Source of the DNA: an uncultured archaeon
GTDB taxonomy: Archaea > Asgardarchaeota > Thorarchaeia > Thorarchaeales > Thorarchaeaceae
Assembly (NCBI GenBank): GCA_964648855.1
Contig: CAZYLT010000013.1
Coordinates: forward strand, 1 to 32,000
DNA: 32,000 nucleotides
Direction: 5' to 3'
Shown: positions 10,051-31,883 of the stretch, piece after piece
Numbering within the stretch: the stretch's first letter is position 1
Layout: each line of letters begins with the position of its first letter
Program-made: the position numbers and the translations under genes
The notes under the pieces: model-generated
Told to the model about the DNA's origin: nothing
What the model saw: the letters and a program-made list of their open reading frames with translations, nothing else
Databases searched by the model: none

Positions 10051-10536
10051 TCAAGCGATGTCCCCGATTTCATTGAGCTCGAGGCGCGGATCTTCCTTTA
10101 TGACCTTTGCAACAACAGAAGTTGAAGAGCGTTTTATTCCCTTAATTTCGAGGACCTGATTTATGATATCCATGAACTCCTTTCTACCCTTTGACCTTGT
10201 CATAACCAGGAAATCAAAATCACCAAGAATAAGGTACACACCCCACACACCAGGTATCTTAGCTAACTCTTCTCCAATTGATTCATAATATCCAGGAGTC
10301 AATTCAACCTGCAATCTAATTACAGTAATGTACTCGTTTTGCAGTTTCTCGGGATTCAGTTTCGCATAATAGCCCTCAATGATATTTGCTCGCTCTAGCC
10401 TCTTCAGCCTGTAATGCACAGTGGACGTTGGTGCACCAACATTCTCAGCTACTTCCTGCAAGGGAGTCCTGCATTCTTGTTGCAGTTCTCTCAGAATATC
10501 AAGGTCCAAGTCATCAAGTCGCGTTGTTCTACTCAT
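10051..10536 (-). CDS. Lrp/AsnC family transcriptional regulator
   Basis: HTH LDDLDLDILRELQ...STVHYRLKRLERANIIEGY and RAM domain VYLILGDFDFLV. Confidence 0.95.
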   Translation of the reverse strand: MSRTTRLDDLDLDILRELQQECRTPLQEVAENVGAPTSTVHYRLKRLERANIIEGYYAKLNPEKLQNEYITVIRLQVELTPGYYESIGEELAKIPGVWGVYLILGDFDFLVMTRSKGRKEFMDIINQVLEIKGIKRSSTSVVAKVIKEDPRLELNEIGDIA

Positions 10537-10682
10537 CCTCTATCCCACGTATCATTAATTTGCAGGATTTGATAGAAGAGGAACATAGTTAAAAAAGCTG
10601 TGAATTTCAATGTTGTAATTTGAAAACTGGTTGAATTGCGGACAACCGCATTGTTTCAGTCAATTTCGGCCGTTAAAATTAC

Positions 10683-11603
10683 ATGAAGGAGATCTACAGA
10701 AATATGTGGGGCGAACTCGCTGCACTTGCCGCAGCCTTCTGTTTTGCGATTGCTGCCACAGTATATAAGGAGCCGTTGAGAAGTCTGACTGCAGTGTCTG
10801 CAAGCATTGTCCGATTTGTAGGCACAACAGTGATCCTGATTGGCATGTTGCTCATCCTTTGGGGGCCGCAGGCGATTTTGGGGCTACCGCCACTAGTCAT
10901 AGGTCTATCCTTTGGGAGCGGGGTGATTGGTCTTGCATTCGGAGATGTGCTATATATGCACAGTTTCAAAGAAATTGGTGTGGCCAGAACCGTGTCTTTG
11001 GTGGGAACATATCCGCTTTTCACTCTGGCAATAGAATTCGTAATTGGCAGGTCGGCTATTCCCTTTCTGGCGATTATTGGCACACCGTTGATATTTGTAG
11101 GCATCTGGCTGCTGTCGCAACGCATGGAGAATCATTCAGAAAATCGAGAAACTTCACTGAGCATGAGTGGTGTTTTTGCTGGGCTGGCAACTTCATTTCT
11201 GTATTCTATAAGCATGCTTCTTGTCAATGATGCCTTGTTACTACTATCCTCGGAGGCAATCGAGGGCGCAGTTGCGGTAAATGCGCTTAGAACTGCAGGG
11301 GGAGGGGTATCTCTTCTCTTTGCAGCTCCAATCATAGATAGGAACAGGGGCTTCCTCAAGGTTACACGCAGAATCGCCATGTTGTTGCTTGTGGGGAGCT
11401 TTATTGCATATGGTATTGGATGGTATCTTCTCACCTTGGGTTTTGCATTGGCACCTGCAGCATTCGTTGTGCCATTATCTGCGACCACCCCTCTATTCGC
11501 AGTTGTGTCAGCTGTAATCTTGCTTCGAGAGCCCATCGATAGGAGGGGAATCTTAGGTGTCATTGCAGCAGTAGGCGGAGTCATTGTGATTCTCTTAGCA
11601 TAG
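10683..11603 (+). CDS. EamA/DMT family transporter
   Basis: About 10 TM in two repeats; GELAALAAAFCFA, GDVLYMHSFKEIGVART and LLREPI. The start may be at 10704. Confidence 0.9.
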   Translation: MKEIYRNMWGELAALAAAFCFAIAATVYKEPLRSLTAVSASIVRFVGTTVILIGMLLILWGPQAILGLPPLVIGLSFGSGVIGLAFGDVLYMHSFKEIGVARTVSLVGTYPLFTLAIEFVIGRSAIPFLAIIGTPLIFVGIWLLSQRMENHSENRETSLSMSGVFAGLATSFLYSISMLLVNDALLLLSSEAIEGAVAVNALRTAGGGVSLLFAAPIIDRNRGFLKVTRRIAMLLLVGSFIAYGIGWYLLTLGFALAPAAFVVPLSATTPLFAVVSAVILLREPIDRRGILGVIAAVGGVIVILLA

Positions 11604-11662
11604 TGCTTAGAGAAAACATAAAAGAAGCAGTAGCCCGCAAAAAATCCGGAACTGTGTAGAAT

Positions 11663-11827
11663 ATGACGTGTGACCATGAGTTTGAGTATGTTGGCGATCA
11701 AAAGGCTGGACAGAGCTCAAATCGCTACTTCAAATGCAAATTATGTGGAGCAGTCAAAGTCAGGTCTGATGATGGTACAGAATATATGATACCTGCGGGA
11801 GAGAAGAAATCCGATAACAACGAATAG
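11663..11827 (+). CDS. 54-aa zinc-ribbon small protein (absent from the ORF track)
   Basis: ATG 11663 to TAG 11825-27: MTCDHEFEYVGDQKAGQSSNRYFKCKLCGAVKVRSDDGTEYMIPAGEKKSDNNE. CxH-x19-CxxCG motif; fills the intergenic gap. Confidence 0.75.
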   Translation: MTCDHEFEYVGDQKAGQSSNRYFKCKLCGAVKVRSDDGTEYMIPAGEKKSDNNE

Positions 11828-30022: not shown

Positions 30023-30265
30023 CGGTTGAACCTGTCATTTCTTATGCTAGGAGATAGACTTGAGGTATCCATGTTCGCGCTGTGCTATCGAATAACAGCG
30101 AGAGTTGCTTTATGCTCGAAAGTTGATGGCAACCAGCAACAACTAGCCATTGTTTGAATATCTTCCAGCTTCTCTGCCACCCATATAGATGGCATACGCA
30201 TATTAAAGTCATTCTATGAAATCCATCCAATTTTTATACTGGTGCCCCATTCACGTCTTTAGGAG

Positions 30266-31183
30266 ATGCATGTGTCCGAGAATGTGCAGAACTATCTGAC
30301 ATTGATTCTTGCTATGTTTCTTTGGGGAGCCAGTTGGGTTTCCGTCAAGATATTGGTTTCAATAGCACCAATAATGACTATCGGATTCTGTAGATACAGC
30401 ATTGCAGGTCTATTGTTTCTCATCTTGTTGAAGTATCAGGGCAGATCTGTGAGATCCATCTTCTCCCAAGAAACAAATCGGAACCTTGTATTTGCAGGTC
30501 TCACAGGGATCCTTGGATTTATGGTTTTTAGCCTGATTGGAACACAATTCACGACAGCGGGGCAAGCTTCAATTATTGCGGGGTTGAACCCGATTACAGT
30601 GAGTGTTTTCGCCTATCTCATCCATAATGAGTCACCTGGCAAACGGTGGCAATACTCAGGATTTGTTCTGTCATTCATTGGCATTATCTTCGTCATAGGA
30701 ATACAATCCCTTATTGACTTCAATCCTGACTATCTCCTTGGAAATAGCATTATTGTGCTCTCCATGATTTGTTGGGGCATTTATTCATCTGTTGGGAAGT
30801 CCTTGATGGGCAAGCTGTCTCCGGTTGAGCTTACTGCAGGAAGCGTGTTTGTTGGCTGGACAATATTTGCAGTTGGGGCATTATTGGAATTACCAGCAGC
30901 GATTAATGCGCTCTTGTTGCCGGGTTTCTGGATTAATGTGGGATTTCTAGGAGCATTATCGGCCTTCCTTGGATTCGTCTTCTATTTTCAGGGAATACAG
31001 CGAGTCGGAGCAACTCGAGCTGGAATGTTCATTAGTCTAGTTCCCGTCTTTGGTACCATCACTGCAGTCCTGCTTTTGGAAGAGCCGATCTATTGGACGT
31101 TTTTGGTTGGTCTGGCACTAGTTGTGACTGGAATTCTCATTCTAAATGCACCAGTTGATGAAGATGCAGAGAAGCCCACTTAG
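30266..31183 (+). CDS. EamA/DMT family transporter
   Basis: FLWGASWVSVK, TTAGQASII, GIQRVGATRAGMFISLVPVF and LLEEPI. Confidence 0.92.
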   Translation: MHVSENVQNYLTLILAMFLWGASWVSVKILVSIAPIMTIGFCRYSIAGLLFLILLKYQGRSVRSIFSQETNRNLVFAGLTGILGFMVFSLIGTQFTTAGQASIIAGLNPITVSVFAYLIHNESPGKRWQYSGFVLSFIGIIFVIGIQSLIDFNPDYLLGNSIIVLSMICWGIYSSVGKSLMGKLSPVELTAGSVFVGWTIFAVGALLELPAAINALLLPGFWINVGFLGALSAFLGFVFYFQGIQRVGATRAGMFISLVPVFGTITAVLLLEEPIYWTFLVGLALVVTGILILNAPVDEDAEKPT

Positions 31184-31214
31184 TCTCCGCCGTATTGGCA
31201 TACGTCTTTCATGC

Positions 31215-31883
31215 TTAGGATTCTTGAGTTTCGTTCTTAGCCAGAGTTCCGGGGTTCTTGACTCGAGGCAAGCAAACAAACTCGCGTATTTCCAGATCAA
31301 AGAAATTATTCATATGAGATGGTCTAATTACAACAGCGGTGTCGGCACCACCAGCATATCCAGCTATGCACATGACTTCAATATCAGGACCACAAGGAAT
31401 GTAACCACTGTCGGCTGCCATGATGATAATTTCTACGCAAACTTTCACGCCCACCCCAACTAGCCTACGAATGGCTTCGGCAATTGCTTCAACACGAGAA
31501 ACTCCGCCCAGCCGCTTTGAAATAGACCTTTCTACTCCAGAAAGAATGTGTGATTGGGTCATGACCTTTATCCCCAAATCATTGAGGCGGGACAAATGCT
31601 TCTTCTCCATGAACCATTCGCCCTCATCTCGGTATCCATAATGTTCTGACACAACGACTACTTCTATATCCGTATCACGGAATGCCTCCGCCGCGAGAAC
31701 ACCAGTTCGGCCCTTTGTGCTGGCAACCACGACATGTCTGACTCCGAGTTCAAGGGCTCTCTCTTTTGCCAGCTCGATTGTTTTTTCTGTATTGGCTTTG
31801 CCAGGCTTTTGGAAATATACAATTTCTTTTGCTTCATATATGCATTCATTACCCATTTTGAAGTCCCATCTCTTTTTGCTCAT
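31215..31883 (-). CDS. Stand-alone pyruvate-kinase C-terminal-like alpha/beta domain protein (COG1751)
   Basis: [50 protein letters not shown] and GADTAVV. Confidence 0.88.

Follow-up and report, generated by a model that had tools for sequence, protein, structure and literature searches.

In the first 32 kb of the 82-kb contig CAZYLT010000013.1 (C13 below; these 32,000 nucleotides are the window) of an uncultured Thorarchaeaceae archaeon, we found an island of about 25 kb around two adjacent genes resembling GcvPA and GcvPB, the alpha and beta subunits of the glycine-decarboxylating P-protein, a pyridoxal phosphate (PLP) enzyme. Judged from residue conservation, the pair is a paralogue with a rebuilt active site in a deep sister clade of the true P-proteins, and on balance it seems probable that it stands at the centre of a self-contained catabolic island in which the PLP enzyme has a non-canonical function. 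The genome (3.1 Mb, 94.6% complete) comes from microbial-mat metagenomes, and close homologues carry the names Lokiarchaeota, Thorarchaeota and Bathyarchaeia. What is new here is the archaeal island context of the pair, with a Liv importer, an M24 hydrolase, a DUF3830 protein, a luciferase-family (LLM) oxidoreductase, an aldehyde:ferredoxin oxidoreductase (AOR) and E1 subunits, as well as the division of this patchily distributed island into a core and a shell.

The P-protein-like pair and its kinase-fold partner

A tree of 130 GcvPB sequences places the beta subunit of the window in a monophyletic paralogue clade (support 100, stem of 0.5 substitutions per site), whose sister consists of Bathyarchaeota sequences that retain the canonical residues. 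The genome's other GcvPB, encoded together with its GcvPA on contig C2, sits among canonical archaeal and bacterial P-proteins and is 41% identical to the window protein (37% for the alpha subunits). When columns with at least 90% conservation in 71 canonical GcvPB are regarded as near-invariant, the paralogue clade keeps 81 of the 160 such columns and switches 40, for the most part to residues that are conserved inside the clade itself; in the alpha subunit, 26 of 92 near-invariant GcvPA columns are switched. A scan of genome contigs with patterns from the P-like beta subunit was dominated by a universal motif and returned 80 loci, 78 of them with canonical GcvPB, which were used only as a comparison set. 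The canonical motifs YPLGS, AGAHGE, PDSAHGTNPA, YYDGAN and PHGGGGPG read AGVGT, GGAHAV, TVLSHPCNAG, AIDQAN and PHGSCGPG in the window, and in the alpha subunit YTPYQPEISQG reads YTG-DVYTDLG and REQHIRR.KATSNIC reads ERTIFCARDKANTSTG. In human GLDC, the YTPYQPE tyrosines are listed among the active-site residues (PMC7259800), and the active-site roles assigned here to the switched motifs are based on conservation and on the residue labelling of that paper.

Compared with the two-subunit P-protein of Thermus thermophilus (1WYT), the window pair has the same fold and the same split alpha/beta architecture. It differs from canonical P-proteins in 66 near-invariant positions, in its separate deep clade and in its constant partner, which is a kinase-fold protein and not T or H. 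A preliminary description of the window, made by reading the sequence without database searches, had pointed to altered motifs in the GcvP-like protein; the counts of switched columns bear this out, and the paralogue exists beside canonical P, T, H and L proteins.

The neighbourhoods of the clade differ between its branches. In subclade A, which is about 50% identical and found in several Asgard families and in one metagenome-assembled genome (MAG) of the Holophagaceae, the operons have the order SDR-SDR-PA-PB-kinase, with two genes for short-chain dehydrogenases/reductases (SDR) ahead of the P-like pair and the kinase-fold gene. In subclade B the dehydrogenase companions vary, with an Ord-like gene here and iron-type alcohol dehydrogenase (Fe-ADH) and/or SDR genes at L114, L115, L116 and L130. 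Loci of subclade B also carry transporters (Opp, amino-acid permease) and amide-bond hydrolases (creatininase, AstE_AspA, Amidohydro_1/3, and hydantoinase A/B in L128), and class-III aminotransferases are recurrent neighbours of the clade as well. At the paralogue loci examined, neither T nor H was found as a neighbour, save a DGC-GcvH fusion near L012. In line with the preliminary description, enzymes that handle aldehydes are found repeatedly next to the P-like clade, as AOR here and as Fe-ADH or SDR elsewhere, which fits a conversion of an amino acid via an aldehyde to an acid.

There is an overlap of 4 nt between the P-like beta gene and the NAD-kinase-fold gene downstream of it, and such a gene follows the P-like pair at 22 of the 27 loci with a visible downstream side, a number to be read as a count and not as a statistic, as related genomes are not independent. 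The protein retains the GGDGT motif and matches the two Pfam NAD_kinase domains with 79.7 and 64.7 bits. That it represents the housekeeping NAD kinase could be ruled out, since a hit of normal size is encoded on contig C12. Its family comprises 813 clusters at 50% identity (E <= 1e-30), nearly all with proteins of 350-410 amino acids (aa), and 60 positions are at least 90% conserved across 146 representatives; the protein is thus strongly constrained. AcoX (COG3199) belongs to the acetoin dehydrogenase operons (acoXABCL); to our knowledge, neither a function nor a substrate has been assigned to the COG3199/AcoX proteins. The window protein resembles AcoX in its NAD-kinase fold with GGDGT, in its length of about 370-390 aa and in the vicinity of an enzyme type that normally reduces a lipoyl group, with E1 alpha and beta subunits in the same island. 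It is unlike AcoX in being coupled to a PLP enzyme, and 'AcoX-type' denotes here a likeness of fold.

Two other loci extend this picture. A second kinase-fold copy in the genome (48% identical) stands first in the operon L123 (C1:354065-360852), together with genes for an S-adenosylmethionine (SAM) hydroxide adenosyltransferase, formate-tetrahydrofolate ligase (Fhs), FolD and formiminotransferase-cyclodeaminase (FTCD), which links the kinase-fold family to folate one-carbon metabolism. At L128:8001-12788, with an Ord-like gene nearby, a class-III aminotransferase fragment is fused or adjacent to a kinase-fold gene, directly upstream of a P-like pair. This sole candidate for a Rosetta-stone fusion (P0269) comes from a contig on which many genes are split, and it was taken as adjacency only.

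The ordinary glycine cleavage and lipoyl genes are encoded outside the island. Apart from the canonical gcvPA/gcvPB pair, contig C2 carries gcvT and gcvH, a second gcvH lies on C5, and two E2 proteins, lipoate ligase homologues and a dihydrolipoamide dehydrogenase (503.9 bits against a curated cut-off of 408.8) are found elsewhere in the genome. The preliminary description was hence right that gcvT, gcvH and lpd do not occur within the window; the genome search which it had proposed found all of these genes, and the window pair is not the only GcvP that coexists with T, H and L. A dedicated H-protein for the paralogue was considered and dropped, as no extra GcvH was found in paralogue carriers of the genus g36 (mean copy numbers of 2.7 in carriers against 3.4). 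The second GcvH (L124, C5:73743-77882) is solitary, with a FAD_binding_4 gene and an Fe-S/CCG (GlcD/GlcF-like) pair close by. An E1 alpha paralogue, 72% identical to the island E1 alpha, is encoded at C1:232398-233357 and adjoins an E2.

Core and shell of the island

Five versions of the island were read, with four different gene orders and a common core. The window type (the window, G386 and L125; 86-97% identity to the window) provides the reference gene set. L012, L013 and L127 (PB 72%) show the window order with an additional flavin adenine dinucleotide (FAD) enzyme gene of the DAO family before Ord and with the DGC-GcvH fusion beyond Lrp, and L126 (DUF3830 65%) has the window order without Ord and without the ferredoxin. 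G387 (PB 68%) is rearranged, with DUF3830-M24-LivF-LivG-Ubl (the ubiquitin-like gene), AOR, EamA and kinase-PB-PA-Ord on one 12-kb contig, and with an HdrB orthologue (49%) on another contig next to Lrp and a PK_C-like gene. In the type of G373, L010, L011 and L096 (PB 63%), the core is kept and the shell is replaced. This type retains LLM, DUF3830, M24, LivFG, LivMH, LivK, PA, PB, kinase, Lrp, glyoxalase, CN hydrolase and E1, and is without AOR, Ord, ferredoxin, the HdrB-like block, both EamA genes and the PK_C-like gene; instead, it has an MtmB homologue, a corrinoid protein, a FAD amine oxidoreductase (DAO family) and a thiamine pyrophosphate (TPP) enzyme. MtmB and the corrinoid protein (L096:13918-15958 in G373; L010:1-90) take the place of the ferredoxin, HdrB-like, EamA and PK_C-like genes of the window. 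The MtmB homologue is full-length and contains no in-frame amber codon, i.e. it is of the non-pyrrolysine type.

The core therefore consists of the Liv importer, M24 and DUF3830, LLM, the P-like pair and the kinase-fold gene, Lrp, glyoxalase, E1 alpha/beta and the CN hydrolase. The exchangeable shell comprises AOR and the ubiquitin-like protein, the Ord or FAD enzyme, the polyferredoxin and the HdrB-like block. The preliminary description overlooked that the island continues past the window with glyoxalase, E1 alpha/beta and CN hydrolase, all of them conserved core genes, which are also present in L125, L126, L127 and in L096 of the G373 variant. Lrp orthologues stand beside the cluster in L012 (74%), G386 (97%) and L096 (63%). 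The first EamA gene stays next to the kinase-fold gene in L012, G386 and G387, the second and third are retained in L125, L126 and L127, and the PK_C-like gene is present in the same three loci, where it travels with the HdrB-like gene, as it does in G387. Just beyond Lrp, L012:15036-16980 contains a small ferredoxin, the DGC-domain/GcvH fusion and two more DGC-domain genes, which possibly form a lipoyl-carrier module.

Within the archaeon's own family (86 genomes), a subclade-B P-like gene was found only in G000, G386, G387 and G373, and strong DUF3830 hits occurred in exactly these four carriers. Because both genes are confined to the same 4 of 86 genomes and the gene set recurs in different orders, the co-location of the island genes is not due to chance. 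The co-conservation that the preliminary description had proposed is thereby found for the P-like pair with the AcoX-like gene, the Liv importer, M24 and DUF3830, and in some lineages for Ord and AOR too.

Among the core proteins, LivK, LivH and LivM have no paralogue in the genome, so that they belong to its only Liv-type ABC importer, and LivK is kept in all island variants whose region was seen. The M24 protein has orthologues (54-96%) in every variant, with DUF3830 as its constant partner; a homologue search with DUF3830 returned only proteins named 'DUF3830' and close Asgard relatives. In the alignment of M24 to the Pyrococcus prolidases 1PV9 and 1WY2, only the last Glu of the five metal ligands is retained, and the other four are changed (D->N, D->N, H->I and E->Q). 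Creatinase and ectoine hydrolase are M24-fold enzymes that hydrolyse guanidino or amidine bonds; creatinase is metal-free as well, and the window protein shares with it the Creatinase_N and pita-bread domains and the loss of the metal ligands. Unlike the ectoine hydrolase DoeA/EutD, it scores far below the curated DoeA cut-offs of NCBIfam (92.1-96.7 bits against 575-613). The LLM protein, present in all variants whose relevant end was seen, is one of three Mer-like paralogues in the genome and reaches 181.7-204.6 bits with the Mer models (cut-offs 276-348.7), its nearest structures being Mer. A true Mer (methylene-tetrahydromethanopterin reductase) was rejected, as all three copies stay below the cut-off. 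Another Mer-like LLM gene is part of a ferredoxin-AOR-LLM operon at C14:42419-47212, which is followed by a gene for a 413-aa protein.

With regard to the shell, AOR (AFOR_N 250 bits, AFOR_C 416 bits) is closer to the Pyrococcus furiosus AOR 1AOR (452.6 bits, full length) than to the formaldehyde ferredoxin oxidoreductase (FOR) 1B25 (296.3 bits), and a formaldehyde/FOR reading was weakened, since the enzyme is of the broad AOR type. Orthologues (69-77%) occur only in island carriers, namely in G000 and G387; the island of G386 is broken at contig ends. Compared with 1AOR, the window enzyme is a dedicated orthologue that travels with the island. Its polyferredoxin gene is 4.5 kb away, whereas on C5, C6 and C14 other AOR genes have a polyferredoxin paralogue immediately in front of them. 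Altogether, the genome contains at least eight AOR paralogues, four of which have a polyferredoxin directly upstream. Homologues of the island ferredoxin align from residue 29, and the first 28 codons (27259-27342) would leave only 14 nt to the divergent LLM start; the true start is probably the Met at 27343.

The Ord-like protein scores 232.9 bits with the NCBIfam model ornith_Ord, below the cut-off of 400, and its nearest structures are 7XDU and AmDH4 (6G1M), both matched over the full length with 183-189 bits, a distance that is usual among members of the family. It keeps the glutamate of the (S/T)(S/A)EE(L/M) motif, which we take to be the catalytic residue in Ord/AmDH, and differs from AmDH4 at N163->V and H264->S, presumably two of the three residues that bind the substrate carboxylate. 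The gene occurs in L012/L127, G386 and G387 and is absent from L126 and the G373/L010 type. In contrast to the setting of 2,4-diaminopentanoate dehydrogenase (Ord), the window contains no ornithine aminomutase or thiolase genes (ora, ort).

The HdrB-like protein has two CCG domains with a complete set of ten Cys, the motifs reading CCP and CCL, and its block adjoins the island in L125, L126 and L127. The gene for a 110-aa protein is conserved upstream of it. This small partner matched no Pfam family and shows neither a ferredoxin motif nor conserved Cys, and its model is helical with a predicted local distance difference test (pLDDT) score of 50. The 106-aa protein also had no Pfam hit; its AlphaFold model (pLDDT 77.8) gave as top Foldseek hits exclusively ubiquitin-like beta-grasp proteins (ubiquitin, SUMO or Haloferax SAMP1), which were weak (E 3e-3 to 2e-2, template-modelling scores 0.4-0.65). 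Its C-terminus is -PRG, in place of the -GG seen in the paralogue on C3 and in the orthologues of L012 and G387. The claim of the preliminary description that four components have altered catalytic motifs can thus be kept for GcvP, where it is now quantified, and for M24 with its lost metal ligands. For the MoaD-like protein the altered C-terminus is real, with the fold assignment resting on the weak matches just given, and the label 'HdrC-like' for the 110-aa protein had to be abandoned.

Proposed chemistry and competing readings

In the island as we read it, the Liv system would import a small nitrogenous solute. M24/DUF3830 may then hydrolyse the C-N bond of an amidine, guanidino or amide group in a reaction that needs no metal, as creatinase does, and the CN hydrolase may act on a further amide or carbamoyl bond. 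The P-like enzyme would decarboxylate the released amino acid, which would not be the ordinary glycine cleavage substrate, with the kinase-fold protein as a catalytic partner that possibly phosphorylates the substrate. Subsequently, the Ord-type amine dehydrogenase would remove the nitrogen and AOR would oxidise the resulting aldehyde, with electrons passing to the polyferredoxin, and the EamA proteins could export the product. An aldehyde or ketone is placed downstream of the PLP step mainly because Fe-ADH, SDR or AOR recur beside the clade in unrelated contexts. With regard to the substrate, we can only tentatively name small guanidino or N-methyl glycine-type solutes (creatine- or sarcosine-like), because a creatinase-like M24, creatininase and hydantoinase A/B are found beside clade members, a DAO-family FAD enzyme occurs with MtmB and a corrinoid protein in one variant, and the organism lives in a microbial mat. 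The second choice would be ectoine or diamino-acid-type solutes, which fit the AstE_AspA, OCD, class-III aminotransferase and Ord neighbours equally well.

Several observations weigh against a non-canonical PLP enzyme in such a pathway. Both subunits pass the NCBIfam equivalog cut-offs (GcvPB 539.5 against 441 bits, GcvPA 488.9 against 364 bits), and the PLP lysine is kept, with NLHKSF aligned to NLHKTF of 1WYT_B (291 bits); taken together, the scores and the intact lysine may leave room for a glycine-type substrate. In G065 (70% complete) and G078 (80%) of the same phylum, T and H were found and P occurs only as the paralogous pair, which reflects either assembly gaps or hints that the paralogue serves the glycine cleavage system. 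The kinase-fold gene does not stand beside the pair at 5 of the 27 loci and is hence not obligatory. Moreover, M24 shows no special closeness to creatinase or DoeA when compared with prolidases, with about 61 bits to DoeA structures against about 100 to prolidases and no creatinase structure among its hits at E <= 1e-8. The assignment of the oxidoreductase to the AOR type and not the FOR type counts against a formaldehyde or methylamine route, and as Ord and AOR are missing from some variants, the steps from amine via aldehyde to acid are not part of the core chemistry. Finally, the neighbouring Pfam families are broad, which makes the substrate class a guess.

A more specific version of the catabolic island would let the kinase act first. 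The NAD-kinase-fold protein would phosphorylate a hydroxyl group of a hydroxy-amino compound, and the P-like enzyme would decarboxylate the phosphoester or eliminate phosphate, which would yield an aldehyde or ketone for the dehydrogenases. Pathways with an amino-alcohol kinase and a PLP phospho-lyase are known, and the proposed one would resemble them. It would account for the 4-nt overlap and the coupling at 22 of 27 loci, the SDR-SDR-PA-PB-kinase operons of subclade A, the Fe-ADH, SDR and AOR neighbours and the aminotransferase gene that adjoins or is fused to the kinase-fold gene in L128, while GGDGT and the many invariant residues would be in line with a working phosphotransferase. However, the kinase-fold gene is missing at the five loci mentioned, the genome's second copy sits with Fhs, FolD and FTCD and without a PLP enzyme, the L128 arrangement may be an assembly artefact, and COG3199/AcoX proteins offer no known substrate as a guide. 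At present, we regard this order of steps as doubtful.

Somewhat less probable still, and on the whole unlikely, is that the pair is an ordinary glycine decarboxylase isozyme, in which case the island would free glycine from an imported derivative and the second P-protein would feed the H, T and L proteins of the genome. Here, the passed thresholds, the PLP lysine and the retained CTMKYNPK motif would find a simple explanation, H, T, E3 and lipoate ligases are available, the creatinase-like, creatininase and hydantoinase neighbours would be steps on the way to sarcosine or glycine, and the gene content of G065 and G078 would be accounted for. On the other hand, among the positions that hardly vary between bacteria and archaea, one in four is switched, active-site motifs included, and the sister Bathyarchaeota sequences keep the canonical residues. 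Furthermore, a canonical pair already exists in the genome, and the clade has its own constant partners, the kinase-fold protein and a dehydrogenase, with the DGC-GcvH fusion near L012 as the sole T- or H-type neighbour in the loci examined.

The lipoyl-based model of the preliminary description fared worse. It had assumed that a substrate other than glycine, once decarboxylated, is passed by the P-like enzyme to a lipoyl carrier, that the adduct yields an aldehyde and ammonia without T-protein, and that the HdrB-like protein takes over from the L-protein the re-oxidation of the dithiol. Consistent with it, three lineages with identities as low as about 65-72% still have the HdrB-like block next to the island, the core contains E1 alpha/beta as a lipoyl-reducing enzyme type without E2 or E3, and in L012/L127 the DGC-GcvH fusion lies 3.5 kb from Lrp. 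The two CCG domains and ten Cys are also shared with the HdrB-lipoate systems of the sHdr/LbpA type, in contrast to which the island has no HdrA, HdrC or lipoate-binding protein and can dispense with the block in the sister variant. Since the genome encodes a bona fide E3/L-protein, there is no L-protein gap that would need a substitute, and two E2 and two GcvH proteins are encoded elsewhere too. In the G373/Thorarchaeota-type variant the block is missing, with MtmB and a corrinoid protein in its place, and in G387 the HdrB-like gene is on a separate contig beside the PK_C-like gene. The island contains no lipoyl carrier of its own, the number of GcvH copies is not raised in the carriers, and the small partner is no HdrC. 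Taken as it was proposed, this model is very unlikely. Two relatives of it are slightly less so, though still improbable. In one, the P-like enzyme and E1 alpha/beta would share a lipoyl carrier, the adduct would collapse without T, and the HdrB-like protein, its partner and the polyferredoxin would re-oxidise the dithiol into low-potential carriers; in the other, a 'sarcosine cleavage' P-protein would release methylamine, which MtmB would take up in the sister variant. If true, the shared carrier would mean a new lipoyl-dependent oxidation of non-glycine amino acids in anaerobic archaea.

A grouping of unrelated operons by mere chance, to which the roughly eight transcription units on both strands and the many genomic paralogues of AOR, ferredoxin, LLM, HdrB-like and EamA genes might point, is hardly credible and for the core largely refuted, given that the same gene set recurs in four arrangements at 54-77% protein identity, the phyletic overlap in 4 of 86 genomes is perfect and the island orthologues are distinct from the genome's other paralogues.

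The non-canonical PLP enzyme which we favour has consequences for annotation. Annotation pipelines label the whole P-like clade as 'aminomethyl-transferring glycine dehydrogenase', and the 'glycine dehydrogenase' names in public records arise because both subunits pass the GcvPA/GcvPB equivalog thresholds. Hence, metabolic reconstructions from MAGs of Asgard archaea, Bathyarchaeia and Hadarchaeota may credit glycine cleavage where another PLP reaction is encoded. Our literature searches on the P-like/kinase-fold module, on DUF3830 and on COG3199/AcoX found no relevant paper. The module of P-like pair and kinase-fold protein is widespread, and solving it would provide a first function for AcoX-type proteins. 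It would also show how uncultured archaea of mats and sediments feed on small nitrogenous solutes, with ferredoxin reduced by AOR. For reconstitution, the island provides a manageable set of proteins, consisting of the binding protein, the hydrolase, the PLP enzyme, the kinase-fold protein, the amine dehydrogenase and AOR.

Gene content and organisation of the window

Genes were called from the open reading frame listing and from Pfam and NCBIfam scans of the window (Table 1), which agreed with the enzymes and coordinates of the preliminary description. The island is made up of about eight transcription units on both strands. A minus-strand operon runs from 18365 to 11851 with the genes for LivK, the Ord-like, GcvPA-like, GcvPB-like and NAD-kinase-like proteins, which are separated by gaps of 87 and 91 nt and then overlap by 1 and 4 nt. 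LivH-LivM is divergent from this operon and AOR is convergent with LivH-LivM. A plus-strand operon encodes the 106-aa protein, LivG, LivF, M24 and DUF3830; the LLM gene is convergent with DUF3830, and the ferredoxin gene is divergent from LLM. Another minus-strand unit comprises EamA, the 110-aa protein and the HdrB-like gene, beyond which EamA and the PK_C-like gene are located. Past the glyoxalase-fold gene, E1 alpha, E1 beta (2-oxoacid/acetoin dehydrogenase type) and the CN hydrolase follow at C13:32409-35315.

Table 1. Island genes in the window, with the evidence for each assignment.
Feature	Position	Strand	Evidence
Lrp/AsnC-family regulator	10051-10536	-	Pfam HTH_24 + AsnC_trans_reg
EamA-family transporter 1, probable exporter	10683-11603	+	Pfam EamA
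AcoX-type NAD-kinase-fold protein (COG3199-like)	11851-12987	-	Pfam NAD_kinase N- and C-terminal domains
GcvPB-like beta subunit, P-protein-like PLP enzyme	12984-14537	-	NCBIfam GcvPB 539.5 bits
GcvPA-like alpha subunit, P-protein-like PLP enzyme	14537-15922	-	NCBIfam GcvPA 488.9 bits
Ord-family (native amine dehydrogenase-like) NAD(P) dehydrogenase, shell	16014-17048	-	Pfam DAP_DH_C
LivK-type substrate-binding protein	17136-18365	-	Pfam Peripla_BP_6
LivH permease	18568-19428	+	Pfam BPD_transp_2
LivM permease	19435-20553	+	Pfam BPD_transp_2
Tungsten-type AOR, shell	20733-22700	-	Pfam AFOR_N + AFOR_C
Candidate ubiquitin-like beta-grasp protein of 106 aa (MoaD/SAMP-like family), C-terminus -PRG	22820-23140	+	Predicted structure
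LivG ATPase	23144-23893	+	Pfam ABC_tran, BCA_ABC_TP_C (LivG + LivF)
LivF ATPase	23844-24599	+	Pfam ABC_tran, BCA_ABC_TP_C (LivG + LivF)
Creatinase_N + M24 'pita-bread' hydrolase	24612-25832	+	Pfam
DUF3830 (cyclophilin-like) protein	25843-26292	+	Pfam PF12903
Mer-like luciferase-family (LLM, F420-type) oxidoreductase	26276-27244	-	Pfam Bac_luciferase
Polyferredoxin, four [4Fe-4S] motifs	27259-27831	+	Four complete Cys motifs
HdrB-like protein, two CCG domains, shell	27858-28760	-	Pfam CCG x2
Small 110-aa partner of the HdrB-like gene	28757-29089	-	Conserved adjacency; no Pfam family
EamA transporter 2	29114-30022	-	Pfam EamA
EamA transporter 3	30266-31183	+	Pfam EamA
Stand-alone PK_C-like (pyruvate-kinase alpha/beta domain) protein	31215-31883	-	Pfam PK_C
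Glyoxalase-fold gene, start only, continues beyond the window	31963-32000	+	Pfam

With regard to signs of mobility and riboswitches, the scan of the window for tRNA genes and Rfam families gave no hit, and the GC profile is flat along the window. Upstream of Lrp, positions 2274-9993 encode a sulfotransferase, an M1-type peptidase, a DinB-like protein, a phosphodiesterase/sulfatase-like protein and a GFO/IDH/MocA oxidoreductase, which apparently lie outside the island.

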